NCBI GenBank assembly: GCA_000743035.1
Contig: CP008939.1
Coordinates: 30,001-62,000 of the forward strand
Length of the DNA stretch: 32,000 bases
Reading direction: 5' to 3'
DNA from: Candidatus Paracaedimonas acanthamoebae
GTDB taxonomy: Bacteria; Pseudomonadota; Alphaproteobacteria; Caedimonadales; Caedimonadaceae
Of this stretch, positions 12,069 to 31,408 are shown one piece after another. The notes below the pieces were generated by a model that was not told the DNA's origin, did no database searches, and saw only the letters and a list, made by a program, of their open reading frames with translations. The translations under genes were made by a program, and so were the position numbers. Numbering within the stretch: the stretch's first letter is position 1; each line of letters opens with the position of its first letter.

Positions 12069-12438
12069 ATGAAATATCAAGATTTCCGTTATCGCCAATT
12101 TTTACCAACTATTATCCTACAGTGTATGCGCTGGTATTTAAGGTATCCCTTGAGCTACCGTAATCTGGAAGAGATGATGGAAGAAAGAGGCGTGGAGGTT
12201 GACCATACAACTCTTTATCGCTGGGTGCAAAAGTATGCCCCTGAACTTGAGAAAAGAATCAGATGGCATGCGCGTACCTTCTGCAGATCTTGGCATCTTG
12301 ATGAGACCTACCTGAGGGTAAAAGGGAAATGGAAGTATCTTTATCGGGCTATTGATAAGAATGGAGGGACTATAGACTTCATGCTCTCAAGCAAACGTAA
12401 TTATCAAGCAGCATATAACTTTCTTAAGAATGCTCTGA
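12069..12438 (+). pseudogene. IS6-family transposase N-terminal fragment
   Basis: FRYRQFLPTIILQCMRWYLRYPLSYRNLEEMMEERGVEVDHTTLYRWVQKYAPE...WHLDETYLRVKGKWKYLYRAIDKNGGTIDF. Homology ends at the IS3 terminal repeat (12439). Confidence 0.8.
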
Positions 12439-12456
12439 TGATCTTGCTACAAAAAT

Positions 12457-13332
12457 TTAGACATTGTGAACTGAGATGGTTTGATTTTTGTAATGATTGT
12501 ATTCCCACTGATTTGGACTTTGATAGTTGAGTGTCGAGTGCCTCCTTTTAGAGTTATAAAATGTGAATATGTATTCAAAGATATCGGTTTTTGCTTCTTC
12601 TAAAGTTTTATAGTTCTTAAAATAGACATGCTCTGTTTTAAGCGTATGAAAGAAGCTCTCCATTGCAGCATTGTCATAAGCACATCCTGTTTTTCCATGA
12701 CTCAGTTTTATTCCATGAGTTTGAGCTATTTCATAAAGGTTATTGCTTGTATATTGGCTCCCCATATCAGAATGATGAATAAGCCCTGAAGGAGGTCTCC
12801 TTAATAAGAGAGCTTGATTAAGTGCTGCTAAAATTAAAGAACTTCTCATGTGATCACTCAAAGCCATTCCCACCACTTTTCGAGAGAATAGATCAAGAAT
12901 AATAGCCAGATAAGCCCAGGTTCTATTGATGGCAATAAAAGTAATATCTGCGGCCCAAATTCTATTAGGAAGAGGAGAATAAAAATTCTGCTGAACGAGA
13001 TCCTGGGTTGGACGAGTGATATTTTCTGAACGTTTTGTTGTTTTAACAAACTTCCTATACATCTTGGCTTGGATATCATTCTTCTGCATCAATCGAGCGA
13101 CTTTAACTCGAGAACAAAAAGTTCCCTGAGCACAAAGTTCTGCATGGATCCGAGGACTGCCATAAGTTTCTCGGCTCTCCTCAAAAATAGTCCTCATTCT
13201 TTTAACAGTCTCAGTGTTCTCCAGTTCTCTCTTGCTGGGACTCCTTTTAATAAAATCGTAATACCCACTGCGAGAAACCCCTAAGACTTGCGCCATCTGA
13301 TCCAAGGAAAATAAAGTGGTATGATGCTTCAT
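12457..13332 (-). CDS. IS3-family transposase OrfB (DDE integrase core), copy A
   Basis: 291 aa: YGSPRIHAEL...RIWAADITFI...HHSDMGSQYTS...DNAAMESFFHTLKTE (rve-type DDE). Confidence 0.85.
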   Translation of the reverse strand: MKHHTTLFSLDQMAQVLGVSRSGYYDFIKRSPSKRELENTETVKRMRTIFEESRETYGSPRIHAELCAQGTFCSRVKVARLMQKNDIQAKMYRKFVKTTKRSENITRPTQDLVQQNFYSPLPNRIWAADITFIAINRTWAYLAIILDLFSRKVVGMALSDHMRSSLILAALNQALLLRRPPSGLIHHSDMGSQYTSNNLYEIAQTHGIKLSHGKTGCAYDNAAMESFFHTLKTEHVYFKNYKTLEEAKTDIFEYIFTFYNSKRRHSTLNYQSPNQWEYNHYKNQTISVHNV

Positions 13333-13380
13333 GAATTCGTACCTTTGCCTCGGGGTTCGGAGAAGATGGCAACTGCTTTC

Positions 13381-14748
13381 CTAAGAAACTCCCTGTACCA
13401 AGTCCTGCATTTTATTCTCTTGCAATATATAACCTAAAGCAGCAGCTCGCTTTGATAAGTTATCAAGAACCCGCTTTTGATATCGTGCCTCATAGTAATT
13501 GGCACCTGGATCAACATATTGCATTCCATAACGCAGAGCATTAAAAAATAATACTGCCATTTTTCTAGCTGTTGCAGTAATTGCCTTTGATTTACCAATG
13601 CGAGCCGAGAGTCGTCTATAAAACGCACCAAGAGCCGTATTTGTCTTTCCAATTGTTACAGCAGCCAATCTTAATGCTGCTGCCGCACGACTTGAGGAAC
13701 GCCGTGTTCGTGATGATAATACTTTCCCTCCTGATACCTTATTCCCTGGAGAAAGACATAGCCAAGAAGTAAAGTGCTTGCTGCTCGGCCAGCGAGACAT
13801 ATCAGTGCCACATTCTGATATTAATTTTAAGGCTAATGAAGGTCCAACACCGTGTATTTGTGTTAAGTCCATTCCTAATGCTTGGTAAAGGGATGCTCTT
13901 ACATCAAAGCTTAAGCTATTAGGTTGTTTAGTGCGATGCCTGGCTTTGGGTAGAGGTTGATCAGGCAACTTATTATCTTTTCCAAGCAAGCTTAATGTCT
14001 CTTCTATTCGACGATCACACTCATTAATTTTTTGTGTGTAATAATCGAATAATTCAACAGCTTGAGTTAAAGAAAACAAATGCTCTTCTTGATAATTACC
14101 CTTTAAGGATTCCTCAATAGTTTTAATGGATTCCTTACAACGTATGTCTCTATGTTCTGCTAATACAGCAGGGCAACGTTCACCATTCATAATCGCACGA
14201 ATGATCTTCATGCCTGTGGCTCCCGTTATATCCGATACGACATGATGCAACTGTAAGTTCATTTGCATTAAAGCTTTTTGCATATGCTGGATATGAGAGG
14301 CTCTGAATTCAAGCATACGTTCACGTTGTCTAATATAAGCACGTAGCACAGTAATTTGTTTTTCTGGTCTGAAGCTAGCACGTAACAAACCAAATTGATG
14401 TAACCGTTGAATCCATTGCGCATCATTGACGTCTGTTTTACGTCCAGGAACATTTTTAGCTTCTCGTGGATTAACTAAAAATACCTCAAAACCATAATTC
14501 TCTAAGATCTCAAAAGCAGGAATCCAATAAATACCTGTGGATTCCATAGCAATGCTGGTGACCTCACAGCTTTTAAGCCATTTTGCCATAGCATGTAAAT
14601 CTGTGGTAAAACTTTGAAACGTACGAACTGGTTCTTTTGCTTTATCACTCCCTACAGCAACAACGTGAAACTTAGCACCAATATCAATCCCAGCAGCATT
14701 TTGATGAATAATTGGCATACTGGATTGTCTGTTAGATTGAGTCATCAC
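13381..14748 (-). CDS. IS110-family (DEDD) transposase, copy A
   Basis: AAGIDIGAKFHVVAV, ESTGIYW and QIHGVGPSLALKLISECG (Transposase_20-like). The likely start is the ATG at 14745, 6 nt after GAGG. Confidence 0.85.
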   Translation of the reverse strand: MMTQSNRQSSMPIIHQNAAGIDIGAKFHVVAVGSDKAKEPVRTFQSFTTDLHAMAKWLKSCEVTSIAMESTGIYWIPAFEILENYGFEVFLVNPREAKNVPGRKTDVNDAQWIQRLHQFGLLRASFRPEKQITVLRAYIRQRERMLEFRASHIQHMQKALMQMNLQLHHVVSDITGATGMKIIRAIMNGERCPAVLAEHRDIRCKESIKTIEESLKGNYQEEHLFSLTQAVELFDYYTQKINECDRRIEETLSLLGKDNKLPDQPLPKARHRTKQPNSLSFDVRASLYQALGMDLTQIHGVGPSLALKLISECGTDMSRWPSSKHFTSWLCLSPGNKVSGGKVLSSRTRRSSSRAAAALRLAAVTIGKTNTALGAFYRRLSARIGKSKAITATARKMAVLFFNALRYGMQYVDPGANYYEARYQKRVLDNLSKRAAALGYILQENKMQDLVQGVS

Positions 14749-14978
14749 TTACCTCTTCTCCTTGTTTATCTATAGAATCAAAGAGCAGGGTAACGAATAA
14801 ATCACTTTCCTAAACGGGGTTTGTACCTCCAATGCCGGGTTCGTTGTACTCCCTGGACCATGTTTTTTAACGGGGTAATCCACCAATAAGCAGACGGCCG
14901 CTCTCTTTGATAGCTCAACTTTAGCAGTTAACGAGCGCGAGTTTCTATTTATTAGGGAAAGGGGTGCCATTTAGGTGG
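14749..14978 (-). ncRNA. Candidate IS110 bridge-RNA-type non-coding left end, copy A
   Basis: 230-nt non-coding region between the element end and the transposase start. See copy B (20594-20823) for the sequence observations. Confidence 0.35.
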
Positions 14979-15369: not shown

Positions 15370-18018
15370 TTACCCCGCCTCGGCCTCTTTATCAGGCCTG
15401 TTATGGGCTGATATCGATGAAGATGGCGCGGTTCGTAGCGTATCAAGAAGATCATCCTCTGTATTGTTTGGCCGCGTTGTTGTCAAGTTTGTAAAAGGTT
15501 GATCATCTCTCTCATTATCGGGATGTATTCCTGAGCGTACACATTCAATAAATTGGTTAATATATTCAATGGCATTTTCTGAAGAGTGGCCATATTCTTG
15601 AACCCATTGAGAAGCGACATAACGGATACTGTCTAAATTCTCTTGTTGATTATTAATACGTTGTTTCGTTATGACAGTAGCAACATAAAACATTTGAAGA
15701 GTAGCAATACATTCTTTAAGGTTGTCTTCGAGTTCGTGTGAAAAAGCTAAAGCTTGGTTAAACTTCTCTTCGAGTGTTTCTGTTCGTTCCTTTAATTTCC
15801 TGACCTCTATTATCTTGTTTTCTAATACTGAACTTATATCACGTATATATGCGTCCGATTCATCTTGTTTTTGTATTAAATTGGTATTCCTCTGCGACAA
15901 TTTATGGTTTTCAGCTTTTAGCTGTTTCATATTTGTTGTTTGTTTTTTTAATTGCTTACTAAGATCTTCTAGCAAAAGATATAGCTTTGAGACATCATCT
16001 TGAGAAGCTATTCTATCTTTTTCGTATTTTTTGACTTTTTCTTCAAATTTCGATAAGGTGCGGTCTTTAGTCCTTATTAATTCATTTAGAGCCTTTCCAC
16101 TTTGTTCTAATTCAGCTTTCTCATTTTTTAATTGATAATTTTGTCTCTTAAGTTCTGAATTTTCCTTGATTATTCTTTTTAATTTAGCAGTCAACTCACT
16201 CAGTTCCGCTTCTTTCTTTGCGTTTTTATCTTGGGTTGACCACAATATTGCTTGTCCATGAGAAAGTTGTTGAGATAATTCATCAATTCTTTTGTTAAGT
16301 TCTTCTAAACGCTCTTGGTAAGCTTGTTCTTTTGCAGGATCATCAGGAATAGGGTTAAGCAAGCGGCTCTCTAAAAAATGAGATGTTTCAGCTTCTTCTT
16401 TTTCCTCTTGCGGAATTTCAGAGTTGCTGAAAACTGATACTTGCGGCATAAAAGTTGATTGTTTTTCTGCATTTCTTCTTCCTGTGTGACATAATGCTTC
16501 CTCATTACTTTCCGAGATTTGGATTGTACGCTCAAGAGTTTTATTGATAGCTTCTAAAGCCTGTTTATCGCTTTCTAAGATGCGGAGCTTCTCAAAAAGT
16601 TCTCTAATTAATTGTTCTAATTCAGAATTTTCTTGCTGTGATGCATCGATCGTTGTAACAGGTGTTGCTTGCCTTTCCTTAAGGTAGAGATTTTCTTGCT
16701 TGAAATTGGTTAAACAATTTTTAAGCTTTTTTGTATGATTTTTTTTCTGAGATATTTTTTGTTTAGCGAGATCTAGCTCTTGTGTTAATTCCATCATACG
16801 TTGTTCGTGAAGTTCAACATTTTCTCGGGTCGTATGATTAAATTTTTTTAGCTTGTTAACGTGAGTGTCTAGCGCAACCTGAAGCTCATGTATGCGTTGC
16901 TCCAATTCATTTTCTTTTGAGGGATCCGCACCCTCTTGTAAAGTATTTACCGATTGTTCTGTTTTAGTTAAAGAGGTAACAGCTGTCTTTGTTTGTTGTA
17001 AAGCTTGATTCTCGTCTTGTTCTTGTACTGTTTCGAGGCGACTCTTAAGGGTACCAAGCTCTCGTTGTAAATCTTCATGGTGTGTTTGCAAGCTGAAAAA
17101 GTCTTGCTCTACGGATTGTCGATGGCTAAGTTCTTGTTCAAGAGCATAATTTTGCTGCTCTAATTCTTGAAGACGTGCAGTTAAATGAGCGTGCTGTTGC
17201 TTATCAATCATAGAAACTTTTGAAACGGAGAGAGAAGACGCAGGAACTGACTCTTCTACGAGCGTAGCTGCTTCTTTTTCTATTGTGAATAAAGGTTGCT
17301 CGTTGCTTTTTAAAGTCTCGTGATGTTGATTGCTCTTATGTGGGGCTATGGGCTCAATAGAGATCTGCTCTTGCTGATTATGAGTGGAAATGGTTGGGAC
17401 ATCTTTGTTTACGACCATGTTTTCTTGTCTGAGTGAAGAAGGAACAAAACTGATGATGTCCTGTTGTTTTATTGTTTCTGGTTTTAATATTGAGATTATT
17501 TTTGAGGGAAAATATAAGTCCTCATTAATTAAAGAGCTTGTTTCCGTTTGAGGTGGAAAAGAAAAAATAGAATTTAAAGGCTCTTTATTTGTTTTTTGCT
17601 GGCTTATATTTATTTTTTGAAGACTTAGCATATGAAGATCAAATAAAGAAGTTTTTTGGCTAGAGGCTCTCATTGTTAAGCTTGACGACTCTTTTATTTG
17701 TTGGGCCTGAGGAATGGTTTGCTTATTCTGCTTTGTTAACTGATCAATTAATTCAGCTTGACGCTTGATAATCATATACAGAACTGTTTGCGTTTTATTT
17801 AAATCCAGGTTTTGTTGCAAAAGTGCCGCATTTTGTTTTCTGAGCCTATCGAGGTTTCGCAAAGATTCGCTTGTCTCTAAAGCTTTTTCACGACGCTCTT
17901 GTTTATCATCAATTTCTTTTGAAAGACTTGGAAAGGGATGAAGGAGGAGTACAATGAGGCTGTTAATAATAAATAAAAGAGCACTTCCCTTAGGTTTTTG
18001 TCCCATTTCATTCCTCAT
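15370..18018 (-). CDS. Large membrane-anchored or secreted coiled-coil protein (882 aa)
   Basis: Hydrophobic N-terminal segment GSALLFIINSLIVLLLHPFPSLS. This is followed by hundreds of residues of heptad-like E/K/Q/L-rich sequence (LQELEQQNYALEQEL, ELKRQNYQLKNEKAELEQ). No enzymatic motif seen. Confidence 0.6.
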   Translation of the reverse strand: MRNEMGQKPKGSALLFIINSLIVLLLHPFPSLSKEIDDKQERREKALETSESLRNLDRLRKQNAALLQQNLDLNKTQTVLYMIIKRQAELIDQLTKQNKQTIPQAQQIKESSSLTMRASSQKTSLFDLHMLSLQKINISQQKTNKEPLNSIFSFPPQTETSSLINEDLYFPSKIISILKPETIKQQDIISFVPSSLRQENMVVNKDVPTISTHNQQEQISIEPIAPHKSNQHHETLKSNEQPLFTIEKEAATLVEESVPASSLSVSKVSMIDKQQHAHLTARLQELEQQNYALEQELSHRQSVEQDFFSLQTHHEDLQRELGTLKSRLETVQEQDENQALQQTKTAVTSLTKTEQSVNTLQEGADPSKENELEQRIHELQVALDTHVNKLKKFNHTTRENVELHEQRMMELTQELDLAKQKISQKKNHTKKLKNCLTNFKQENLYLKERQATPVTTIDASQQENSELEQLIRELFEKLRILESDKQALEAINKTLERTIQISESNEEALCHTGRRNAEKQSTFMPQVSVFSNSEIPQEEKEEAETSHFLESRLLNPIPDDPAKEQAYQERLEELNKRIDELSQQLSHGQAILWSTQDKNAKKEAELSELTAKLKRIIKENSELKRQNYQLKNEKAELEQSGKALNELIRTKDRTLSKFEEKVKKYEKDRIASQDDVSKLYLLLEDLSKQLKKQTTNMKQLKAENHKLSQRNTNLIQKQDESDAYIRDISSVLENKIIEVRKLKERTETLEEKFNQALAFSHELEDNLKECIATLQMFYVATVITKQRINNQQENLDSIRYVASQWVQEYGHSSENAIEYINQFIECVRSGIHPDNERDDQPFTNLTTTRPNNTEDDLLDTLRTAPSSSISAHNRPDKEAEAG

Positions 18019-18551: not shown

Positions 18552-19380
18552 GGCCCTGTTGCAAAAATATTATTTGAGCAGATTTAGGTCTTTTTGCAGT
18601 TTTCAATTAAACAGTATAGACACTGAATTGTCGGTTAACGAGACGGATTTCTCCCTTGAGTCCTTGGCGATATTTCCAAAGATCCATCTGTCCCTTTTTA
18701 AACATCCTCATCACTTCAAACCCTTTAATCGTTGCATAAGCTGTTTTCAAAGATTTAAACCCTAGAGTTGGTTTAATCAGTCGTTTGAGTTTACCATGAT
18801 CAGCTTCAATAAGGTTATTGAGATACTTAATCTGTCGATGCTCAAGGTCTTGAGGACAAAGTCCTTCCTTCTTTAATTCTTTGATCGCTACAGCATAAGT
18901 AGGTGCCTTATCTGTATTAATTTTACTTGGTTTTTCCCATTCCTTAAACTTTCTTAAAGCCTTTGAAAGAAACCGTTTGGCAGCACTGATATTTCTTGTC
19001 GATGAAAGATAAAAGTCTATAGTACGCCCTCGCTTATCAAGAGCTCGATAAAGGTAAGCCCATTTACCCTTAACTTTTACATAAGTTTCATCAACTCTCC
19101 AGCTATAGCCAAGCCCTGGTTTCCAATACCACCTGAGCCTTTTCTCAATCTCTGGAGCATAAGTGATTACCCATCTATTAAGAGTTGTATGATCAACCGT
19201 AATGCCTCTTTCTTCCATCATTTCTTCAAGGTCCCGATAGCTGATCCCGTATTTACAATACCACCTTACGCATCCAAGAATAATATCCCCTTGAAAATGA
19301 CGCCACTTAAAATCATTCATCCAATAGTCCTCTAATTTTTAGAAACTCTGAACGAAGACAAAACTTTTTGCAACAGGGCC
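18552..19380 (-). mobile_element. Intact IS6-family (IS26-like) insertion sequence, 829 bp
   Basis: Perfect 16-bp terminal inverted repeats GGCCCTGTTGCAAAAA (18552-18567 and the reverse complement of 19365-19380). Single 237-aa transposase. The flanking 8-mers differ (ATGTAGGG versus TCCTCAAG), so there is no target duplication. Confidence 0.9.
18607..19320 (-). CDS. IS6-family DDE transposase
   Basis: MNDFKWRHFQGDIILGCVRWYCKYGISYRDLEEMMEERGITVDHTTLNRWV...WRVDETYVKVKGKWAYLYRALD...TDKAPTY...NNLIEADHGKLKR. Confidence 0.9.
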   Translation of the reverse strand: MNDFKWRHFQGDIILGCVRWYCKYGISYRDLEEMMEERGITVDHTTLNRWVITYAPEIEKRLRWYWKPGLGYSWRVDETYVKVKGKWAYLYRALDKRGRTIDFYLSSTRNISAAKRFLSKALRKFKEWEKPSKINTDKAPTYAVAIKELKKEGLCPQDLEHRQIKYLNNLIEADHGKLKRLIKPTLGFKSLKTAYATIKGFEVMRMFKKGQMDLWKYRQGLKGEIRLVNRQFSVYTV

Positions 19381-20627: not shown

Positions 20628-20823
20628 AAACTCGCGCTCGTTAACTGCTAAAGTTGAGCTATCAAAGAGAGCGGCCGTCTGCTTATTGGTGGATTACCCC
20701 GTTAAAAAACATGGTCCAGGGAGTACAACGAACCCGGCATTGGAGGTACAAACCCCGTTTAGGAAAGTGATTTATTCGTTACCCTGCTCTTTGATTCTAT
20801 AGATAAACAAGGAGAAGAGGTAA
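20594..20823 (+). ncRNA. Candidate bridge-RNA-type non-coding left end of the IS110-family element, copy B
   Basis: 230 nt with no credible CDS (the 66-aa track ORF has no support). It is relatively GC-rich and rich in self-complementarity, for example CCTAAATGG (20597-20605) with CCGTTTAGG (20755-20763). It contains short matches to the element end and to both flanks (see findings). Confidence 0.35.
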
Positions 20824-22191
20824 GTGATGACTCAATCTAACAGACAATCCAGTATGCCAATTATTCATCAAAATGCTGCTGGGATTGATATTGGTGCTAA
20901 GTTTCACGTTGTTGCTGTAGGGAGTGATAAAGCAAAAGAACCAGTTCGTACGTTTCAAAGTTTTACCACAGATTTACATGCTATGGCAAAATGGCTTAAA
21001 AGCTGTGAGGTCACCAGCATTGCTATGGAATCCACAGGTATTTATTGGATTCCTGCTTTTGAGATCTTAGAGAATTATGGTTTTGAGGTATTTTTAGTTA
21101 ATCCACGAGAAGCTAAAAATGTTCCTGGACGTAAAACAGACGTCAATGATGCGCAATGGATTCAACGGTTACATCAATTTGGTTTGTTACGTGCTAGCTT
21201 CAGACCAGAAAAACAAATTACTGTGCTACGTGCTTATATTAGACAACGTGAACGTATGCTTGAATTCAGAGCCTCTCATATCCAGCATATGCAAAAAGCT
21301 TTAATGCAAATGAACTTACAGTTGCATCATGTCGTATCGGATATAACGGGAGCCACAGGCATGAAGATCATTCGTGCGATTATGAATGGTGAACGTTGCC
21401 CTGCTGTATTAGCAGAACATAGAGACATACGTTGTAAGGAATCCATTAAAACTATTGAGGAATCCTTAAAGGGTAATTATCAAGAAGAGCATTTGTTTTC
21501 TTTAACTCAAGCTGTTGAATTATTCGATTATTACACACAAAAAATTAATGAGTGTGATCGTCGAATAGAAGAGACATTAAGCTTGCTTGGAAAAGATAAT
21601 AAGTTGCCTGATCAACCTCTACCCAAAGCCAGGCATCGCACTAAACAACCTAATAGCTTAAGCTTTGATGTAAGAGCATCCCTTTACCAAGCATTAGGAA
21701 TGGACTTAACACAAATACACGGTGTTGGACCTTCATTAGCCTTAAAATTAATATCAGAATGTGGCACTGATATGTCTCGCTGGCCGAGCAGCAAGCACTT
21801 TACTTCTTGGCTATGTCTTTCTCCAGGGAATAAGGTATCAGGAGGGAAAGTATTATCATCACGAACACGGCGTTCCTCAAGTCGTGCGGCAGCAGCATTA
21901 AGATTGGCTGCTGTAACAATTGGAAAGACAAATACGGCTCTTGGTGCGTTTTATAGACGACTCTCGGCTCGCATTGGTAAATCAAAGGCAATTACTGCAA
22001 CAGCTAGAAAAATGGCAGTATTATTTTTTAATGCTCTGCGTTATGGAATGCAATATGTTGATCCAGGTGCCAATTACTATGAGGCACGATATCAAAAGCG
22101 GGTTCTTGATAACTTATCAAAGCGAGCTGCTGCTTTAGGTTATATATTGCAAGAGAATAAAATGCAGGACTTGGTACAGGGAGTTTCTTAG
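20824..22191 (+). CDS. IS110-family (DEDD) transposase, copy B
   Basis: Identical translation to copy A. The likely start is the ATG at 20827, after GGAGAAGAGG. Confidence 0.85.
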   Translation: MMTQSNRQSSMPIIHQNAAGIDIGAKFHVVAVGSDKAKEPVRTFQSFTTDLHAMAKWLKSCEVTSIAMESTGIYWIPAFEILENYGFEVFLVNPREAKNVPGRKTDVNDAQWIQRLHQFGLLRASFRPEKQITVLRAYIRQRERMLEFRASHIQHMQKALMQMNLQLHHVVSDITGATGMKIIRAIMNGERCPAVLAEHRDIRCKESIKTIEESLKGNYQEEHLFSLTQAVELFDYYTQKINECDRRIEETLSLLGKDNKLPDQPLPKARHRTKQPNSLSFDVRASLYQALGMDLTQIHGVGPSLALKLISECGTDMSRWPSSKHFTSWLCLSPGNKVSGGKVLSSRTRRSSSRAAAALRLAAVTIGKTNTALGAFYRRLSARIGKSKAITATARKMAVLFFNALRYGMQYVDPGANYYEARYQKRVLDNLSKRAAALGYILQENKMQDLVQGVS

Positions 22192-22239
22192 GAAAGCAGT
22201 TGCCATCTTCTCCGAACCCCGAGGCAAAGGTACGAATTC

Positions 22240-23115
22240 ATGAAGCATCATACCACTTTATTTTCCTTGGATCAGATGGCGCAAGTCTTAGGGGTTTCTC
22301 GCAGTGGGTATTACGATTTTATTAAAAGGAGTCCCAGCAAGAGAGAACTGGAGAACACTGAGACTGTTAAAAGAATGAGGACTATTTTTGAGGAGAGCCG
22401 AGAAACTTATGGCAGTCCTCGGATCCATGCAGAACTTTGTGCTCAGGGAACTTTTTGTTCTCGAGTTAAAGTCGCTCGATTGATGCAGAAGAATGATATC
22501 CAAGCCAAGATGTATAGGAAGTTTGTTAAAACAACAAAACGTTCAGAAAATATCACTCGTCCAACCCAGGATCTCGTTCAGCAGAATTTTTATTCTCCTC
22601 TTCCTAATAGAATTTGGGCCGCAGATATTACTTTTATTGCCATCAATAGAACCTGGGCTTATCTGGCTATTATTCTTGATCTATTCTCTCGAAAAGTGGT
22701 GGGAATGGCTTTGAGTGATCACATGAGAAGTTCTTTAATTTTAGCAGCACTTAATCAAGCTCTCTTATTAAGGAGACCTCCTTCAGGGCTTATTCATCAT
22801 TCTGATATGGGGAGCCAATATACAAGCAATAACCTTTATGAAATAGCTCAAACTCATGGAATAAAACTGAGTCATGGAAAAACAGGATGTGCTTATGACA
22901 ATGCTGCAATGGAGAGCTTCTTTCATACGCTTAAAACAGAGCATGTCTATTTTAAGAACTATAAAACTTTAGAAGAAGCAAAAACCGATATCTTTGAATA
23001 CATATTCACATTTTATAACTCTAAAAGGAGGCACTCGACACTCAACTATCAAAGTCCAAATCAGTGGGAATACAATCATTACAAAAATCAAACCATCTCA
23101 GTTCACAATGTCTAA
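22240..23115 (+). CDS. IS3-family transposase OrfB, copy B
   Basis: Identical translation to copy A. Its ATG overlaps the orfA-tail TGA (ATGA at 22240-22243). It is in the -1 frame relative to the orfA tail. Confidence 0.85.
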   Translation: MKHHTTLFSLDQMAQVLGVSRSGYYDFIKRSPSKRELENTETVKRMRTIFEESRETYGSPRIHAELCAQGTFCSRVKVARLMQKNDIQAKMYRKFVKTTKRSENITRPTQDLVQQNFYSPLPNRIWAADITFIAINRTWAYLAIILDLFSRKVVGMALSDHMRSSLILAALNQALLLRRPPSGLIHHSDMGSQYTSNNLYEIAQTHGIKLSHGKTGCAYDNAAMESFFHTLKTEHVYFKNYKTLEEAKTDIFEYIFTFYNSKRRHSTLNYQSPNQWEYNHYKNQTISVHNV

Positions 23116-23166
23116 ATTTTTGTAGCAAGATCAGTTCAGAGACAGAGGAAAGCACATAAGCTCTCA

Positions 23167-24319: not shown

Positions 24320-24589
24320 CTATTCTTTTAAATGTTGTTTTTTCTCGATTAGTTTAATTCGTCGCTCGAGGTACCACACCGCCTTTCGTAAGTCTTTAAC
24401 TTCGTCATGCTTACGACCAGCTCGAGAAATATATTTGAGAGCACAAGCTAAATGATGATTTAAATTCCAGTCCTCAACTATACTAATAGGTTCTATTGTT
24501 CTCCCTTCTATGTAATGCTTTGGGGATTCAATTTCTGCATCTTGGTCGTCTTTTGCGGGGAGTTTTATAAGGTATAAATTCTCAGTCAT
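24320..24589 (-). CDS. DUF3310-like (phage SaV-like) small protein
   Basis: PKHYIEG...IEPISIVEDWNL..HLACALKYISRAGRKHDEVKDLRKAVWYLERRI matches the HY...KY..R.g.K...DL.KA..YL signature. The ATG at 24589 overlaps the rep1 TGA (ATGA). The track start is 24595. Confidence 0.55.
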   Translation of the reverse strand: MTENLYLIKLPAKDDQDAEIESPKHYIEGRTIEPISIVEDWNLNHHLACALKYISRAGRKHDEVKDLRKAVWYLERRIKLIEKKQHLKE

Positions 24590-26001
24590 GAGCATGCTCT
24601 CATAAAGGGTTGATTTAAATATTCTGTATATCTCTTCCCTGACAAAGACCCAGCAGGATTTAACCTACTGGGGTTAGTTAAGGGAGAGATTTGAGGAACA
24701 TCTTGTTCCTCTCTATTTGATGCTTGAAAGGCATCAAAACTTAATTGTGTTGAGGAGATAGAAGGAGAGTTATTGGGGGCCTCTCCTTCTATCAACTTTG
24801 GCCTTAGGAGGGGGTGGCCAAAGTTTTGGGGGATGTCTATTTGAAGATGCTTAATGGGATGACCTAAAGCTTCTTCTAAGGCTGATAGAATTTGAGCTTT
24901 TAAGTTCTTGGTGATCCAGCCCCTTGCAAACAGGTTGGAAACTTGTAAACAAACTTCTTGAGAAGTGAGAGAGGCGATATCGATCTCTAAGAGCCATTGG
25001 CGAACACTAAAGACACTTATCTTTTCAATCAGTGATAAACACACTTTCTTCCACAAAGGATGATGGGAAGAAGAGAGAATCTCTTGGCGTAATAATTCTT
25101 CTTTTTCTGCTTCGAGAAGAAAGGTGATACGATCTCCTAAAGTAAACTGACCCGCTTCAATATTTTGGTAAGTATCAGCTTTAATTGCCCAGGTGAGCCA
25201 AGGTTTTTGGAAGTTCTTACCACTCGCCTCTCCCATCAAGAATTTATAGGAGGCAATCTTCCAGCAATAAGATTTCCAATTAGTAAGACAAGAGCCACAA
25301 AGGCTTTGAAATGATCTATAAAGGCTCAAGATTAAAGAAGGGGTTAACTGGCTGACCTCAAGAGAGCCAATCTCTTCCATCCAGATTTCTTTCATTTTAT
25401 TGGCTATGTTTTTTTCTTCTGCACTTCCCAATGAGGAAGAGGTAGGAGAAAGAGAAATATCTTTTATACTCTCTGTGTATAATCTCTTATCTATATTGTT
25501 TGCTAATTTTTTAACATTCGAAGGTCCATTTTTGACGTTCGAATGTTGTGAACTTAACATTCGGGAGTTATGCGGGTTTTGAGGTAATGTAAAATCACTT
25601 AAAGGATAGCCAAGTGCAAATAAGCTTTCCTGTAGTTTTACCAGGTTCAGCCTATATTTGGTTGTCTTGTCCCATTTATTATCATCAAGATATGCCTCTT
25701 CGATAACCTCAAGGTCGACAAGGTTTTTTAAAACGGTGCGCATTGTTTGACGAGAAACTCCAAGCATTGTTTCATCAGCTAGATCTTGAGCTGTTTTAAT
25801 GATCCATCCATGTCTAAGATCAACATTACACTCTGGATTGCGGTTATGTTCTTCTTGAAGAAATCTATCAAAATCATGGACACGTTTTGTCCAATAAATG
25901 AGCTGATGCAATACAACAGCAACCTTATAGTCTTGTGTTAAAGCCACAAGATCTTTGAAAATAACTGACTCCATAATAGGACGCACAGTATTAGATTGCA
26001 T
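24586..26001 (-). CDS. Plasmid/phage-type replication initiator-like protein (Rep paralog 1)
   Basis: N-terminal winged-helix-like region (VVLHQLIYWTKRV...GWIIKTAQDLADETMLGVSRQTMRTVLKNLVDLEVIE) and a Ser-rich linker. A central block is shared with Rep2 (IWMEEIG...YCWKIASYKFLMGE...WAIK...IEAGQFTLGDR). The C-terminus is DnaA-N-terminal-like (HPLWKKVCLSLIEKI...VRQWL...). Confidence 0.55.
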   Translation of the reverse strand: MQSNTVRPIMESVIFKDLVALTQDYKVAVVLHQLIYWTKRVHDFDRFLQEEHNRNPECNVDLRHGWIIKTAQDLADETMLGVSRQTMRTVLKNLVDLEVIEEAYLDDNKWDKTTKYRLNLVKLQESLFALGYPLSDFTLPQNPHNSRMLSSQHSNVKNGPSNVKKLANNIDKRLYTESIKDISLSPTSSSLGSAEEKNIANKMKEIWMEEIGSLEVSQLTPSLILSLYRSFQSLCGSCLTNWKSYCWKIASYKFLMGEASGKNFQKPWLTWAIKADTYQNIEAGQFTLGDRITFLLEAEKEELLRQEILSSSHHPLWKKVCLSLIEKISVFSVRQWLLEIDIASLTSQEVCLQVSNLFARGWITKNLKAQILSALEEALGHPIKHLQIDIPQNFGHPLLRPKLIEGEAPNNSPSISSTQLSFDAFQASNREEQDVPQISPLTNPSRLNPAGSLSGKRYTEYLNQPFMRACS

Positions 26002-26599: not shown

Positions 26600-27499
26600 T
26601 CATTTGCGTTTGTACTTAATATATGGGTATGTTTTAATAATTTTAAAGGGTAGCATTAGAATTATGTTGCTTAAAGTGATGAGTACACTGGCATATAATG
26701 TGTTTTTTGATGGAAATTCTCTCCAAATTGTCCATCCCATTAACATAGAAATAGGAAGCATTAAGTAACTTATTAATGATATTGTAGTCAAATTATTAAT
26801 TCTTAAACCATACGTGTATAAAAAACTTGCAACAATATGTATAATGGCCATAAAAGAAAAAATGGTTAGTTCGTGTAAGTTGACTTTAATTTTACTATAA
26901 TCTATGAAAATTAAGGATATACCTATACAACATAAACTATAATAAAACATAATCGAGAATATTGTTTCTGATACGGGCATTTTTTTAAATACTAAAACAG
27001 CTAAGGATATACAGAAAGCTGCTCCTATAGCGTATAAACCATGAACGCTTAAAACTTCATCATTTGGCCTAAAAGCTATATAAATTCCTACAATACACAT
27101 AATAAATGAAATCATTTGTTGATTTGTAAGTTTTTCTTTTAAAAATATTATGCCTAGAATTGTCATAAATATTGGATTTAAAAAATACAAGTATTTATAA
27201 GAATATAACTGTAATCCTGCTAAAGCTTTTGTTGCAAATATTAAGCTAGTTGCTGAAAAAAAAGATCGAAGCAAATGCATTTTAAGGTTTTTGGTCTTAA
27301 ATAGCGCTATTTTTTTTAATATGAATGCTGATGGTGCTAAAAATATAATTAATAAAATGCTTCTATAAAGCAATATTTCATAAGTTGTATATGTTTCGGT
27401 TGATAACTTGAGCAAACTTTCAGACAAGCAAAATAAGATGCTTCCTGAAATAAGTGAAATGTATTGAAAATAGCTACTATTAATTAATTTATTTAACAT
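26600..27499 (-). CDS. EamA/DMT-superfamily transporter
   Basis: 299 aa, about 10 hydrophobic helices in two halves. Divergent from the LysR gene. Confidence 0.7.
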   Translation of the reverse strand: MLNKLINSSYFQYISLISGSILFCLSESLLKLSTETYTTYEILLYRSILLIIFLAPSAFILKKIALFKTKNLKMHLLRSFFSATSLIFATKALAGLQLYSYKYLYFLNPIFMTILGIIFLKEKLTNQQMISFIMCIVGIYIAFRPNDEVLSVHGLYAIGAAFCISLAVLVFKKMPVSETIFSIMFYYSLCCIGISLIFIDYSKIKVNLHELTIFSFMAIIHIVASFLYTYGLRINNLTTISLISYLMLPISMLMGWTIWREFPSKNTLYASVLITLSNIILMLPFKIIKTYPYIKYKRK

Positions 27500-27644
27500 T
27501 ATGAGTTACCCATATGTAATAATTTTAAATTGTGAAAGAACAATTTTCATTGCTACTTCAATAATAACATTATAAATATCAAATATAAGAAAAAATTTTC
27601 TAAAATAAGAGATACATTTTACTGGATGAGGAAAAAAACATCCC

Positions 27645-28562
27645 ATGAGCCCAATGAAATTTAATATTCCTAACAATTTAGATTGGGAGTTACTTAAACG
27701 TTTTAATATTTGTACTCATTCTTCCACATTTGCAGAGGCAGCTAAGAAAATCAAAACTAGCCAGGGTGCTTTAAATAGGCAACTTGACACATTAGAAAAT
27801 GAACTTGGAAAAAAGTTATTTTTAAGAACAGCTAAATACCGTTCTATGGAATTAACTCCTGATGGTAAGGATTTGAAAAATATTGTTGATCAAGTTTTTG
27901 ATATAATATCAAAAAAGATTACAAGAAAAATACCCTCAACTTTAAATCAAGAAAGAAAAAAAGTACTAAAAATAATATCTACCCCAGGTTTATCTACAAC
28001 TTTACTCCCTAATGCTCTTTCCGAATATGTTCATTTTAATAAAGAGATCCGCATTGAATTAAGTGCTCAAGTACCACCAAAAAAATTAGATGTTGGAGAA
28101 GTTATCATAAGAAATGATTTTCTTCCTCAAAATAACCTTAAATTTGTTAAATTATGTTCACTATCAATGAGTTTTTATGCATCTTCTTCTTACTTAAGTA
28201 CCCAAGGGGTTCCATCTTCTTTTGAAGAATTAACAGAACACAGCATTTTAACTACACATTATTCTAATATTTCAAGTACCGATAAATATGCTATAAGCCA
28301 AAAAAAATCAATTATTATTGAGCCATTGTTTCAAGCTGACTATATTGATTTTCTTGTAGAAATGGCTTATAGAGGCCATGGTATTTTATCCTTGCCTGAT
28401 CTTCACCCAGCAACAAGAAATCTTATTAAAATAGATTCAATTCCTGCTCAGAATGAAGAAATTCAAGCAGCTTTTCTTGATATAGCTGAACAAGATTCAA
28501 GTATTTATAAGTTTATTAATTATTTAACCACCTATTTAGAAAGAAATAATCATGGAAACTGA
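27645..28562 (+). CDS. LysR-family transcriptional regulator
   Basis: N-terminal HTH (LLKRFNICTHSSTFAEAAKKIKTSQGALNRQLDTLENELGKKLFLR) followed by a ~200-aa substrate-binding-type domain. Confidence 0.75.
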   Translation: MSPMKFNIPNNLDWELLKRFNICTHSSTFAEAAKKIKTSQGALNRQLDTLENELGKKLFLRTAKYRSMELTPDGKDLKNIVDQVFDIISKKITRKIPSTLNQERKKVLKIISTPGLSTTLLPNALSEYVHFNKEIRIELSAQVPPKKLDVGEVIIRNDFLPQNNLKFVKLCSLSMSFYASSSYLSTQGVPSSFEELTEHSILTTHYSNISSTDKYAISQKKSIIIEPLFQADYIDFLVEMAYRGHGILSLPDLHPATRNLIKIDSIPAQNEEIQAAFLDIAEQDSSIYKFINYLTTYLERNNHGN

Positions 28563-28635
28563 GATAATATATGAGAAGACCACACCGATAGAAAATTTTG
28601 AAAATTTAACTGATGACTGGTATGCTCCTTGGTAA
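28552..28635 (+). CDS. Mini-ORF A: 27-aa candidate precursor or signal peptide METEIIYEKTTPIENFENLTDDWYAPW
   Basis: The ATG at 28552 overlaps the LysR stop by 11 nt. Stop TAA at 28633-28635. It is a paralog of mini-ORF B, sharing P-(x)-I-E-x-hydrophobic...E...(D/N)-D-W-Y-x-x-W-stop. It is below the 60-aa ORF-track cutoff. No strong SD. Confidence 0.4.
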   Translation: METEIIYEKTTPIENFENLTDDWYAPW

Positions 28636-28751
28636 ATGATGAGGTATTAGTACCAAACCATCAAGCTACAAGAAGTTTAGAAAAGATTACAACAATACTG
28701 TTCCAAACCATGGACACTCTTATTAGATATTTAAATGTTGCGGGAACAGGG

Positions 28752-28781
28752 TTCAATAATTTTCAATTTTATTGAATTTTT
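28752..28781 (+). terminator. Weak AT-rich hairpin plus T5 between the two mini-ORFs (possible attenuator)
   Basis: TTCAATAA (28752-28759) pairs with TTATTGAA (28769-28776), with a 9-nt loop, then TTTTT (28777-28781). Confidence 0.25.
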
Positions 28782-28810
28782 ACTCAAATTTTTAAAGGAT
28801 AAAAATAACC

Positions 28811-28900
28811 ATGACCTCAAAGACAAGTTTAGTTAATGAATTACCTCAAATAGAAGAAGTTCTCGAAAGCACGATAAATGATTGGTATATAACTTGGTAA
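28811..28900 (+). CDS. Mini-ORF B: 29-aa candidate precursor or signal peptide MTSKTSLVNELPQIEEVLESTINDWYITW
   Basis: AAGGAT lies 10 nt upstream of the ATG at 28811. Stop TAA at 28898-28900, only 7 nt before the oxygenase GTG. The stop region also supplies the oxygenase SD (TAAGG). Confidence 0.45.
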   Translation: MTSKTSLVNELPQIEEVLESTINDWYITW

Positions 28901-28907
28901 GGTCTAA

Positions 28908-29651
28908 GTGTTAAAAATAACTCAGGAAGGCCCAGGATTCATTGTATGGGATGATTTTCTAAGTAAAGAAAATCATCGGCTTGTATGGAACTATATTCAG
29001 AGCGAAACTCTAGAATTTGTACATCAAAAAAAATGGGTTAAAGCATTTCGATTAACTGATGGAGAGCCTTTATGGGGGCCTCCTTACCTTTCTGATCCTT
29101 ATACCCCAGACATAAAAAGTATTGTATATCCTACTAAAAAAGGAATCGACCTTTTTATCTCTGAACTTAAAAATTTAGCACCTCATTGCGAGCATATTAT
29201 TGGTAAACAAGGGCAAGACTGGGCTTATTTTTTTGCACGTGCGTATATTTATCCTAAAGGTACGGGATTATCTTGGCATAGGGATAATGAAAACAGTGCA
29301 CAAGGGGCTTTTGTTTATTATGCACACCAGGAATGGGATCCTCAATGGGGCGGAGAATTTTTAATATCTTCTTATGAAACACAAAAGTTAAAATACCCTG
29401 AATCAGAACTTTATGGTGGTGAAAAGAAATACTTAGGGTCACATTTAGATAATACCTTTGAAAAAGAAACCTTATTAAGTTCAGGAATAGGGACTTATAT
29501 TATGCCTAAGCCAAATAGGCTTATAATAATAACTTCTGGTATTATTCATTGTATTAAAAAGGTAGAAGAAGCAGCTGGAAATAAAGTTAGAGCTTCAATT
29601 ACTGGTTTTTTTCAAGATCCTGCAATGCTTTTAAAGAAAAGTGAAAATTGA
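28908..29651 (+). CDS. 2-oxoglutarate/Fe(II)-dependent oxygenase (prolyl-4-hydroxylase-like fold)
   Basis: Facial triad H124-R-D126 (SWHRDN) and H214 (SGIIHCI). R228-A-S230 is a 2OG-binding RxS. WGGEF and PNRLIII strands are typical of the family. GTG start 5 nt after AAGG. Confidence 0.75.
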   Translation: MLKITQEGPGFIVWDDFLSKENHRLVWNYIQSETLEFVHQKKWVKAFRLTDGEPLWGPPYLSDPYTPDIKSIVYPTKKGIDLFISELKNLAPHCEHIIGKQGQDWAYFFARAYIYPKGTGLSWHRDNENSAQGAFVYYAHQEWDPQWGGEFLISSYETQKLKYPESELYGGEKKYLGSHLDNTFEKETLLSSGIGTYIMPKPNRLIIITSGIIHCIKKVEEAAGNKVRASITGFFQDPAMLLKKSEN

Positions 29652-30095
29652 TTTATGTTTTAAATCATAAATTGGTGGGGGTGAGTTTCCTCTTTAAGCA
29701 TCCCTGTTGGTTATTTTAGTATCTAAGGCTTTCTCCCCAATTCGCCTTAAATAACTTTTTGGAGACTATGGCAGCCCCCTGCTGCTCTTACTAAATGTAG
29801 TATATAAGAATCATTTTAAAAATATCAAGTAAAAAGTTGTTGATTTCATTATGTTTTATCTCATTTGTTGCAATAAAAGATTTATATCTCATTTTTTAAA
29901 AAATTAATGTATCGTTAATCAATTAGTAAGGTATTGTTAAGATTATATTAATAGTTTTTTAATAAATTCATGGTTGAATTCCTCAGGGTTTATATACTCA
30001 TCAAAAGTAAATTTATCCCTAATCTCAGCATGGAACTCTTTATCCTTAAAAATAGCAAACATTACATTGTTCTCTTTTTTCCTTCATCCTATCTC

Positions 30096-31364
30096 TCAAA
30101 CAGTAAAGCTAAGATAATTAATTTTTGTGCTATTAATCTCTTCTAAAGCTCTTTGAATTTCTTTCTCATACTTTTTTTGGAGATAATCTTTATAAAATCT
30201 GCTTGAGGCTTTAAGCTCAGCTATATGTTCATTGGAATCATTGTTTCCTAGATAAGTTAAGTCTAACTCTTGGAAATATTTAGCGGCATTGCCCCCTACC
30301 CTTTCAGTTAAAAGCAAGCATGCTTTAATCCATAAAGGATGTCTTGGAAGTTCTAAGAATTCTTGCCTAGTTTCCTGAATAACTCTCTCAGCCTCTTTTT
30401 GTTGTTGGTCTTTGCTTAAAACAACTTCTCGATCCCCCAGGGTAAAATCCCCTGCCTGAATTCTTTCAAAGCTTTCATGCTGGATGGCCCATGAGAGCTT
30501 AGCCTTAAAATTTGTATTCTTCTTCTCTCCCATTAGGAACTTGGAAGAAGCAATTTGGCGGCAGTACGTCCGCCAAAGGTCAAAGGAACTTTCAAAGGTT
30601 CTCTTGAAAGCGTTGTTCAGATTTGTGATGAGAGTATTTGAAAGAAAGCTAACATCTAACCATCCAATTTCTTCCATCCAAATATTTTTCATTTCATTTG
30701 CAACCTTCTCCTTCTCAACATTTTGTAATGAGAGAGAGGTTGGATAGAGAGAAGAAGATGAAGTACTTTCTGTAAAATCATTATTCTTCCCCCCTATAGT
30801 CCCCCCATAGGAATGGCTGTTTGTGTCGTTACTGGAACGGTTGCTCAAAAGCACCTCTTCCCCCTTCCCTTTAGCAACTCTCTTAGGACTAAGCTTAGAA
30901 TTTTCCTCTTTTTGGGCCTTATTCTCAAGGTTCAAAGGCTTATTAGCTGATTTCTTTTCTGCTAATGCTTCTTTAGGTTGGTCGGGAGTCTTATTACGAA
31001 CAAAAAAGGTTCGATTGGTTTTTCTGTCATGATAACTTGCATAGAGTTTACCTTGAAACTTATCTTCAGCTTTCATGAATTCTGTTTTGCTTTTATAGCG
31101 GATGCCAATAGTATCAAAAGCTGCATTAAAGACACGGCGCGAAAATCCTAGTTCCTCAGTCCAGCTGTCTCCTAATCGATATAAGCGATGTTTGCAAGGC
31201 TCTAAGAATTTATAGAAGCCTTGAGGATATTTAGAAAACCAATAATCAAGTTGGCCTCTTATAAGACCTAAATATGGTGAGCCTAGCTCAGGCTCAGGAG
31301 TACGATAACATAAAATCACAAAGGATTTTTTAGGGCACAAAATCCTATTAGGTAAAACACTCAT
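30096..31364 (-). CDS. Replication initiator-like protein (Rep paralog 2)
   Basis: The central and C-terminal blocks are homologous to Rep1 (IWMEEIGWLDVS..., YCRQIASSKFLMGE, LSWAIQHESFERIQAGDFTLGDR, HPLWIKACLLLTERV). The N-terminal ~150 aa are different. Preferred start is the ATG at 31364, 7 nt after AGGAG. The track start is 31379. Confidence 0.55.
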   Translation of the reverse strand: MSVLPNRILCPKKSFVILCYRTPEPELGSPYLGLIRGQLDYWFSKYPQGFYKFLEPCKHRLYRLGDSWTEELGFSRRVFNAAFDTIGIRYKSKTEFMKAEDKFQGKLYASYHDRKTNRTFFVRNKTPDQPKEALAEKKSANKPLNLENKAQKEENSKLSPKRVAKGKGEEVLLSNRSSNDTNSHSYGGTIGGKNNDFTESTSSSSLYPTSLSLQNVEKEKVANEMKNIWMEEIGWLDVSFLSNTLITNLNNAFKRTFESSFDLWRTYCRQIASSKFLMGEKKNTNFKAKLSWAIQHESFERIQAGDFTLGDREVVLSKDQQQKEAERVIQETRQEFLELPRHPLWIKACLLLTERVGGNAAKYFQELDLTYLGNNDSNEHIAELKASSRFYKDYLQKKYEKEIQRALEEINSTKINYLSFTV

Positions 31365-31408
31365 TTGTTTTCTCCTCATGTTGAGGTGCTACAAACAAGC
31401 TTTTCCCG

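Follow-up and report, generated by a model that had tools for sequence, protein, structure and literature searches.

Two mini-genes beside a prolyl hydroxylase-like oxygenase in Candidatus Paracaedimonas acanthamoebae encode likely precursor peptides of an apparently undescribed family

We analyzed a 32,000-nt stretch of the genome of Candidatus Paracaedimonas acanthamoebae (contig CP008939.1, positions 30,001 to 62,000). The whole stretch is referred to here as the window, and positions are counted from its first letter. Two mini-open reading frames (ORFs), A and B, are sited in the window between a LysR gene and a gene encoding an Fe(II)- and 2-oxoglutarate (2OG)-dependent oxygenase. By comparison with related loci, mini-ORFs A and B are real genes. 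We consider it likely that they encode precursor (substrate) peptides of a small conserved peptide-modification cassette, in which the peptide core would be oxidized by the adjacent oxygenase, most likely at a Pro residue, and the product exported. The three genes at the center of this study are as follows.

28552-28635, plus strand: mini-ORF A, 27 amino acids (aa), METEIIYEKTTPIENFENLTDDWYAPW and then TAA; an acidic leader and a canonical core, W-Y-A-P-W-COOH.
28811-28900, plus strand: mini-ORF B, 29 aa, MTSKTSLVNELPQIEEVLESTINDWYITW and then TAA; core W-Y-I-T-W-COOH.
28908..29651, plus strand: Fe(II)/2OG oxygenase, PHD/P4H (prolyl hydroxylase)-like, 247 aa, GTG start; PF13640 (E = 9.5e-10) and PF13661.

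A preliminary description of this DNA had reported two mini-ORFs, both stopping right after their second Trp, and both were found exactly so: A ends in ...DDWYAPW and B in ...NDWYITW (C-terminal sequences are written here up to the stop codon). Its statement that B ends 7 nt before an Fe(II)/2OG oxygenase gene was also borne out, this being the distance from the B stop codon to the GTG start. The B stop codon overlaps a possible Shine-Dalgarno (SD) sequence (TAAGG), and an AAGGA motif lies 11 nt 5' of the B ATG. ORF A is 273 nt upstream of the oxygenase gene, with the remnant of a LysR gene in between. Of the 1,828 stop-to-stop frames in the window that span 10 codons or more, exactly 2, ORFs A and B, end in WY..W; composition-preserving shuffles of the window gave a mean of 0.035 such frames. 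Neither peptide matched Pfam or NCBIfam at an E value of ≤1, and no Nif11 domain was detected among those models. An Rfam scan of positions 28300-29100 found no RNA family. A promoter and terminator scan of positions 27400-30100 returned fewer promoter-like sites than in shuffled sequences and no terminator between the ORFs. Databases carry short peptides of this kind without names.

Peptide A agrees with the consensus of the family described below and has a net charge of -6, and its ...WYAPW core is also found in L018b, L093, and L094b (L numbers denote loci of our survey). Peptide B is the orthologue of the single Caedibacter peptide (orthologues MILKTNPANDLSQTEEALESKINDWYIPW and MISKTTPTNDLFQIKEDLESKINDWYIPW). 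Counting residues back from the C terminus, Pro(-2), encoded by CCC in the Caedibacter orthologues, is replaced by Thr (ACT) in ORF B, which is the sole non-Pro(-2) variant (1 of 25 peptides). With A present, ORF B may be drifting as a relaxed copy; alternatively, it may be a variant that is tolerated.

In order to place homologues of the oxygenase on contigs, we used a genome scan, a metagenome scan with an alignment as the query, and look-ups of exact proteins. The genome scan, which used one protein as the query, gave two close Caedibacter loci only. Short ORFs were first sought with the expression WYxxW, which was later relaxed to [aromatic]-x-P-W-stop. In Caedibacter sp. 38-128 and 37-49, whose oxygenases are 92-94% identical to that of the window, one peptide (...INDWYIPW) ends 8 nt before the oxygenase gene. 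Alphaproteobacterium 41-28 (oxygenase 74% identical) has the order EamA, LysR, MNEHEKESVIPFEQNIQSGEDQGEEIKNIEDWYVPW (followed by a stop), oxygenase. Further lineages encode ...DEWYHPW, ...DDWYMPW, or, in one case with two copies, ...DGWYSPW and ...NVWYAPW. The peptides of L024 end in ...SLYSPW and ...DMYDPW and that of L026 in ...DFVPW; L025 and L027 have a 62-aa form that ends in ...APVPW, with Tyr absent. Legionella pneumophila encodes the 21-aa peptide MKVYYSNRIDADEDKDEYMPW, again followed directly by a stop, 41 nt before its oxygenase gene. In all, short ORFs ending in x-P-W-stop accompany the oxygenase in about 16 to 19 independent lineages.

At an oxygenase identity of ≥43%, approximately 13 of 20 lineages have an x-P-W-stop ORF on the same strand within 700 nt upstream. 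The background rate of frames ending in PW, taken from all other frames of 90 loci, was 34 of 20,893 (0.16%). A 700-nt upstream region contains about 13.5 frames, and at this number the binomial probability of 13 or more positive lineages of 20 is 1.6e-17. Peptides encoded on the opposite strand, 1.3 to 2 kb from the oxygenase gene, were found in two more lineages (L009 and L097). No conserved small ORF of the x-P-W kind was found beside oxygenase homologues below approximately 43% identity. The only candidate shared in that range, MFPGRRCTRWVGPW, is encoded in GC-rich DNA downstream of the gene in L030 and L069 and was taken as chance or redundancy.

Seven further homologues were held out and fetched blind to their surroundings, and six of these loci were positive. 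The peptides end in ...EEDDWYMPW (L091), ...QEDDWYAPW (L093), ...NEDWYGPW and ...NDRWYAPW (the two copies of L094), ...PEDRFYTPW (L095), and ...EDKDEYMPW (L096, Legionella sp. 16cNR16C). At L097, three opposite-strand copies lie at a distance of about 2 kb and adjoin a LysR gene, with a HipAB module between the peptide genes and the oxygenase gene. An x-P-W ORF was not found in L092 (Puniceispirillum). In a neighbor-joining tree of 62 oxygenases, every peptide-associated enzyme falls into one clade. Inside this clade, a peptide is present in 20 of 22 loci, with one to three ORFs each; outside it, the count is 0 of 40, L092 being among them. The preliminary description had suggested that such small ORFs might co-occur with homologues of the oxygenase. 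They do so within this clade, and across the 16 to 19 or so lineages it is the peptide, written in synonymous codons, that is conserved and not the DNA only.

One of the two clade members lacking a peptide, L016, lies on a contig of only 1.4 kb, too short to be informative, with a toxin-antitoxin gene upstream; the gene between the contig edge and the oxygenase gene (159-455) is of the XRE helix-turn-helix (HTH) type. The module of L097 (3343-4814) encodes HipA and an HTH protein. The toxin-antitoxin inserts at these two loci fit a mobile or plasmid context. The oxygenase homologue of L041 (57% identity) is broken into two ORFs (577-1271), a sign of a frameshift or pseudogene. Upstream of it an x-P-W ORF was not found, and this locus may be a decaying cassette.

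Alignment of the family revealed that the conserved element is Y-x-P-W at the free C terminus, after an acidic stretch. Trp(-1) is invariant and Tyr(-4) is nearly so. Of the 25 peptides, 24 have Pro(-2), which is encoded by all four of its codons (CCT, CCC, CCG, and CCA), and the Tyr codons (TAT and TAC) and stop codons (TAA, TAG, and TGA) likewise vary synonymously across lineages. The leaders are hypervariable and essentially unalignable. The 11 residues preceding the core are acidic, with a net charge of -1 to -5 in all short forms, and the whole-peptide charge of the short forms is -2 to -9. Since the Pro, Tyr, and stop codons vary synonymously, this comparison indicates that selection acts on the peptide and not on the DNA. 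The synonymous codons, together with the unalignable acidic leaders, also indicate that the conserved thing is the amino acid core and its free C-terminal position. This corrects the preliminary description in two respects. It had taken WYxxW as the core, and the first Trp is not general: as a general motif WYxxW was rejected, since the first expression matched only at an oxygenase identity of ≥62% and the relaxed search led to x-P-W with Tyr at -4. It had also pointed to a P-x-I-E resemblance between the leaders of A and B, which is not general among the relatives.

The 25 peptides, from about 16 to 19 lineages, have the form of gene-encoded short precursors with a variable leader and a conserved core, and their genes are conserved beside a candidate modifying enzyme, as are the precursor genes of peptides that are made on ribosomes and modified after translation (RiPPs). 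There are one to three copies per locus, and the loci with more than one are the window, L018, L024, L094, and L097. The same-strand gap to the oxygenase gene ranges from overlap of its start (L003, L018, and L094) to 273 nt, and it is 41 to 134 nt in Legionella, L024a, L025, and L026.

Further evidence came from myxobacterial relatives (L009, L021, and L023), in which oxygenases of this clade have as partners Nif11-leader precursors that end in ...GRYSGYYRPW. The oxygenase homologue of Corallococcus carmarthensis is 46% identical to the window enzyme. Its Nif11-family partner, a 114-aa protein matching TIGR03798/PF07862, is encoded on the opposite strand, 1.3 kb from the oxygenase gene. The Nif11 type comprises nine protein clusters, one of them labeled as a predicted ribosomally synthesized peptide by JGI; all end in ...RLK[AS]VMQQGRYSGYYRPW, and hence in GYYRPW, except one that is incomplete. 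The x-P-W core therefore is found on three unrelated leader types (short acidic, 62 aa, and Nif11), always beside the same enzyme clade, which is the pattern expected of an enzyme-substrate pair. By sequence, the Nif11 relatives connect the x-P-W core with a recognized family of RiPP leaders (TIGR03798; proteusin and prochlorosin type). The window peptides differ from these relatives in being only 27 to 29 aa long, with a simple acidic leader and no Nif11 domain. In C. carmarthensis, a large uncharacterized RiPP-like cluster (L009/L010, 2009-10747) surrounds the Nif11 precursor gene and encodes a PhyH protein, the PHD-like oxygenase, two B12-radical-SAM enzymes, a Rieske oxygenase, a TylF methyltransferase, and an aldo-keto reductase; the window cassette has neither the radical-SAM genes nor the other tailoring genes.

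The window enzyme has the features of a 2OG oxygenase, namely a double-stranded beta-helix, the HxD...H triad, and the 2OG-binding Arg, as judged by the PF13640 match, the invariant residues, and the fold match. H124-x-D126, H214, and R228 are invariant in 30 homologues, which makes this a hydroxylase-type and not a halogenase-type site. A P-K-P-N-R motif at residues 200-204 is invariant as well. A sequence search of the PDB gave only weak matches, to PHD2 (E of about 6e-3). An AlphaFold2 (AF2) model (mean predicted local distance difference test [pLDDT] score, 91.4) was compared with solved structures by using Foldseek. The top PDB matches were Pseudomonas putida PPHD (the EF-Tu prolyl hydroxylase), human PHD2, and Dictyostelium PhyA, with E values of about 1e-8 and template modeling (TM) scores of 0.55 to 0.76. 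All of the nearest solved folds thus are peptidyl-prolyl 4-hydroxylases, in line with the P4H-like character that the preliminary description had assigned to the enzyme. The known PHD-type hydroxylases (PHD2 acting on HIF, PPHD on EF-Tu, and PhyA on Skp1) have the HxD...H and Arg site in common with the window enzyme, and their substrates carry a defined Pro, as do 24 of the 25 peptides here. The C-terminal oxygen-dependent degradation domain (CODD) of HIF, a PHD2 substrate, has L-A-P-Y after an acidic stretch. The known members differ from the window enzyme in acting on large folded or regulatory proteins that are encoded elsewhere. We know of no PHD-type hydroxylase that is paired with a dedicated, adjacent, multicopy mini-gene substrate or with an exporter. 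The oxygenase family is small, with 136 clusters (50% identity; E ≤ 1e-30) found among 1.84 billion representatives. Some distant relatives (P0224 [2,461 aa], P0277 [1,827 aa], P0254, P0262, P0263, and P0305) are very large proteins, perhaps assembly-line or multidomain enzymes, that have the oxygenase domain as their C-terminal ~230 residues.

Three further features make up the window cassette.

26600..27499, minus strand: EamA/DMT-family transporter gene, divergent from the LysR gene; PF00892 (E = 2.9e-21) and TIGR00950 (carboxylate/amino acid/amine transporter), with seven transmembrane-like segments.
27645..28562, plus strand: LysR-type transcriptional regulator gene; PF00126 and PF03466; its 3'-terminal 11 nt are shared with the start of ORF A.
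28629..28775, plus strand: remnant of the 3' end of a second LysR gene (pseudogene fragment) of the Caedibacter type, identified by DNA and protein alignment.

The DNA between A and B (28640-28780) can be aligned with the 3' end of the Caedibacter LysR genes (L011 and L012). The translated remnant is 61-64% identical over 28 aa to the C terminus of the Caedibacter LysR, compared with 32% to the window's own LysR. Identity between the window and Caedibacter is 93% for the oxygenase, 66% for EamA, and only 52-53% for LysR. Because these identities differ and a Caedibacter-type LysR remnant lies between A and B, the sequence comparison identifies the window locus as a mosaic of two diverged cassettes, with the remnant marking the junction. 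By the same comparison, one part consists of EamA, LysR, and peptide A and the other, Caedibacter-like part of the LysR 3' remnant, peptide B, and the oxygenase. The codon differences between A and B follow from their coming from different cassettes. The preliminary description had held that the likeness of A and B does not reflect a recent DNA duplication, and the intervening LysR remnant upholds this.

LysR genes adjoin the peptide genes in the window, L003, L011, L012, L014, L024, L094, L095, and L097, and the peptide gene overlaps the LysR end in the window, L003, and L011. The position of EamA is conserved in five lineages. An MFS transporter similar to POT di/tripeptide permeases is encoded in L018, L024, L041, L094, and L097, and a MATE transporter is encoded in L095. 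As for leader removal and export, exporters of three families recur, and no protease gene is conserved in the cassette. The window EamA probably is the exporter of the product, judging from its family and position. In Legionella, L025, and L093, a soluble protein of approximately 360 aa takes the place of LysR and the exporter. Members of this partner family (~355 to 370 aa) are encoded beside the oxygenase at the following positions.

L008, 5813-6904: partner protein.
L096, 5751-6830: partner protein.
L025, 1506-2621: partner protein.
L093, 3539-4603, minus strand: partner protein.

The partner protein had no match in Pfam, in NCBIfam, or in a PDB sequence search, and its AF2 model (pLDDT, 83; beta-rich) had no significant Foldseek match in the PDB. 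From the model, the protein may have a new fold or may act as a new partner enzyme. Legionella species carry it widely (359 aa in Legionella pneumophila, where it occurs on at least 1,000 contigs), and it is absent from the window. Given this absence, it says nothing on the mechanism. Since LysR, the exporter, and the partner vary among loci, L091 and L093 having neither LysR nor exporter, the minimal conserved unit on present comparison is the peptide plus the oxygenase.

Genes for two paralogous DnaA_N-domain proteins, 37% identical over 255 aa, flank the window cassette (24586-26001 and 30096-31379, both on the minus strand). The same bracket is present in Caedibacter L011 and L012, and homologues adjoin the cassette in L024, L094, and L097; ParA or Tra genes are near the cassette in L094 and L097. 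The DnaA_N proteins are probably plasmid Rep-like, and the cassette appears, on that reading, to travel with plasmid replication regions. Directly downstream of the upstream DnaA_N gene is a gene (24320-24595, minus strand) for a protein of the DUF3310 family, which is common in phages; this is a further sign of a mobile-element context. A nucleotide search of the window cassette against the plasmids of PLSDB gave no match. Elsewhere in the window there is a 2,441-bp inverted repeat (99.9% identical; 12433-14871 and about 20700-23140). Each arm carries IS3-family (rve, 291 aa) and IS110-family (455 aa) transposase genes, and the arms enclose about 6 kb with an 882-aa ORF that has no Pfam match (15370-18018) and an IS6/IS240 transposase gene (18607-19320). 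This arrangement looks like a composite transposon.

We propose the following working model. The peptides would be translated, each as a variable acidic N-terminal leader followed by the four-residue core Tyr-x-Pro-Trp at the free carboxylate. The PHD-fold oxygenase would then oxidize the core, most likely by hydroxylating the penultimate Pro. Prolyl hydroxylation is the leading candidate because 24 of the 25 peptides have Pro(-2) and the enzyme has a PHD-like fold; it is the most economical guess from the sequences and the structural model, and it was not among the chemistries listed in the preliminary description. Since no dedicated protease is encoded, the leader could be trimmed by housekeeping aminopeptidases, stalling at X-Pro bonds, as aminopeptidases do. 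The product left would be of di- to tetrapeptide size, either x-Hyp-Trp or Tyr-x-Hyp-Trp, where Hyp is hydroxyproline. Export would be by the divergently encoded EamA, or by MFS/POT or MATE transporters in other lineages, and LysR would control the cassette. In the window, ORF A would be the canonical substrate, and ORF B, without the Pro, a relaxed copy or variant. We infer five steps of this scheme: the peptide as substrate, Pro as the site, removal of the leader, an exported product, and whatever it is that LysR senses.

Several observations weigh against this proposal. The assignment of the peptides as RiPP-like substrates of the oxygenase is drawn from genomic association. ORF B does not have the proposed target Pro. 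Sequence identity to the PHD folds is 15-20%, which, like the TM scores of 0.55 to 0.76, is moderate and does not fix the target residue. Neither a dedicated protease nor a RiPP recognition element was found in the minimal cassette. L091 and L093 lie in a chromosomal context with no LysR or exporter gene nearby. L022, a well-sampled member of the clade, has no x-P-W ORF within 3.2 kb. Finally, the chemistry may need the ~360-aa partner, which the window lacks. On the other side, the RiPP precursor-like architecture put forward in the preliminary description gains support from the clade-bound co-occurrence, the one to three copies per locus, the Nif11 leaders, and the exporters.

A serious alternative for the chemistry, although we regard it as unlikely, leaves the peptide as the substrate but has the oxygenase modify aromatic residues instead, by Tyr or Trp beta-hydroxylation, by forming a Tyr-Trp cross-link, or by oxidative decarboxylation of the C-terminal Trp, with Pro playing only a conformational part. 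The invariance of Trp(-1) and near invariance of Tyr(-4) would be expected in that case, and ORF B, which is still intact, retains W-Y-x-x-W without the Pro. There is also precedent: in crocagin formation, the Tyr-Trp at the C terminus of the 21-aa precursor undergoes beta-hydroxylation by a 2OG dioxygenase (PMC10070186), and a further study reports 2OG enzymes that oxidatively decarboxylate C-terminal aromatic residues (PMC12871766). However, the nearest solved folds are all prolyl hydroxylases, and the crocagin enzyme, CgnC, is of the PhyH type and unrelated at the family level (hhalign probability, 0.07%). Moreover, retention of Pro(-2) through all four of its codons goes beyond what a spacer role predicts, and Tyr is absent from L025 and L027 (...PVPW).

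Less probable again is a role within the cell, in which the peptide would serve, by analogy with PHD and HIF, as a sensor substrate whose O2-, Fe-, or 2OG-dependent hydroxylation alters its stability or its binding to LysR and so provides a switch responding to oxygen or metabolism, or would act as a small regulator of the oxygenase or LysR. The PHD-like fold, the LysR gene immediately upstream and overlapped by the peptide gene in the window, L003, and L011, and the lack of an encoded protease would suit such a role, as would the lack of both exporter and LysR genes near L091 and L093. Recurrent exporters, of three unrelated families beside the pair, and several diverged precursor copies per locus make it less likely than the precursor reading. 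The Nif11-leader version in a large tailoring cluster and the hypervariable leaders, which are typical of discarded leader peptides, also stand against it.

A function in cis is improbable. Here, A and B would be leader ORFs that tune oxygenase expression by translational coupling or by arrest of the TnaC kind, with the C terminus and stop codon as the stalling element. In TnaC-type arrest peptides, the conserved last residues and stop codon bring about stalling at termination. The likeness to these is a short ORF just upstream of the regulated gene with conservation confined to the last residues and the stop codon; the B stop codon 7 nt before the oxygenase start, overlapping a possible SD sequence, and the peptide ORFs that overlap the oxygenase start in L003, L018, and L094 would fit. 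Position is not fixed here, however: one to three copies occur on either strand, at distances from overlap to about 2 kb. ORF A is 273 nt away beyond a LysR remnant, the gap is 41 to 134 nt in Legionella, L024a, L025, and L026, and the three opposite-strand copies of L097 are separated from the oxygenase gene by about 2 kb and a HipAB module. In Corallococcus, the copy lies on the opposite strand at 1.3 kb and encodes a Nif11 protein of 114 aa. Such positions could not be tolerated by a cis element, and this explanation is largely refuted. Chance open frames in AT-rich intergenic DNA, with a coincidental resemblance, might be suspected from such very short ORFs without database annotation in a window of 36% G+C, where stop-free stretches are short but common, but this is refuted by the comparative data (2 adjacent frames on the same strand against 0.035 expected from shuffles, the lineage-level binomial probability of 1.6e-17, synonymous codon variation, and restriction of the trait to one clade).

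Returning to the peptides as precursors of a modified product, we compared the cassette with described systems. The nearest architecture is that of crocagin from Chondromyces crocatus, in which the 21-aa precursor CgnA has a C-terminal I-Y-W core that is oxidized by the 2OG dioxygenase CgnC (PMC10070186). Crocagin shares with the window system a very short precursor, a tiny C-terminal core ending in an aromatic residue and Trp-COOH, and, in its own case, Fe(II)/2OG oxidation, and its cluster has transporters and a regulator; its product is small and exported. Every test of membership failed, namely those for the CgnB/CgnE binding proteins, the CgnD hydrolase, a PhyH-type CgnC, and a basic leader. 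CgnC belongs to the PhyH family (PF05721, E = 1.6e-19) and the window enzyme to PF13640. When the window and all 97 loci were searched by tblastn with CgnB, CgnE, and CgnD, there was no match at an E value of ≤0.01. Crocagin leaders are strongly basic and end in N-x-Y-W (supplement to PMC10070186), whereas the leaders here are acidic, with the core Y-x-P-W.

The literature was searched in open-access papers and preprints, including for the literal core strings, and the pairing of such peptides with this oxygenase was not described there, although subscription journals may differ. The preliminary description had recognized no matching class, and the crocagin comparison and this search agree with it. 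We also considered the pantocin A system, which consists of the 30-aa precursor PaaP, PaaA, the 2OG oxygenase-like PaaB, and the exporter PaaC. It resembles the window system as a minimal RiPP cassette in which a precursor of about 30 aa gives a product of about three residues, with an Fe/2OG oxygenase-family protein, a dedicated exporter, and no dedicated protease. It differs in its internal Glu-Glu-Asn core and in its class-defining ThiF/E1-like PaaA, which has no counterpart here; PaaB was compared by description only.

We therefore describe the peptides and their PHD-type oxygenase as a candidate new RiPP-like family, that is, an apparently undescribed family of enzyme-modified and probably exported peptides. 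By its distribution, the cassette often is plasmid associated and is found in Legionella species, in Caedibacter-like and other alphaproteobacterial metagenome-assembled genomes (MAGs), and in myxobacteria. We put forward tentatively, with slightly less than even confidence, that the family is a new RiPP-like class defined by a HIF-PHD-type prolyl hydroxylase, in which O2-, Fe-, and 2OG-dependent hydroxylation of Y-x-P-W would be followed by trimming and by export as a diffusible signal or effector.

Mini-ORFs under annotation cutoffs can be validated purely by clade-restricted co-occurrence, as this case shows. If the proposal holds, [YF]-x-P-W followed by a stop codon, beside a member of this oxygenase clade, serves as a simple rule for finding unannotated precursor genes. 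The peptides are also directly testable as substrates, synthetic 20- to 30-mers being cheap. If the proposal is true, no earlier bacterial prolyl hydroxylase would have had a dedicated peptide substrate encoded in the genome, and PHD-type prolyl hydroxylases would extend from protein regulation to peptide biosynthesis. The cassette could make a secreted signal, read by the adjacent LysR, depend on oxygen or iron status. It would also represent an uncharacterized family of peptide natural products or signals with a tiny footprint, a gene for 20 to 36 aa plus one oxygenase gene, present in the human pathogen Legionella pneumophila and in alphaproteobacterial MAGs with few known secondary metabolites.

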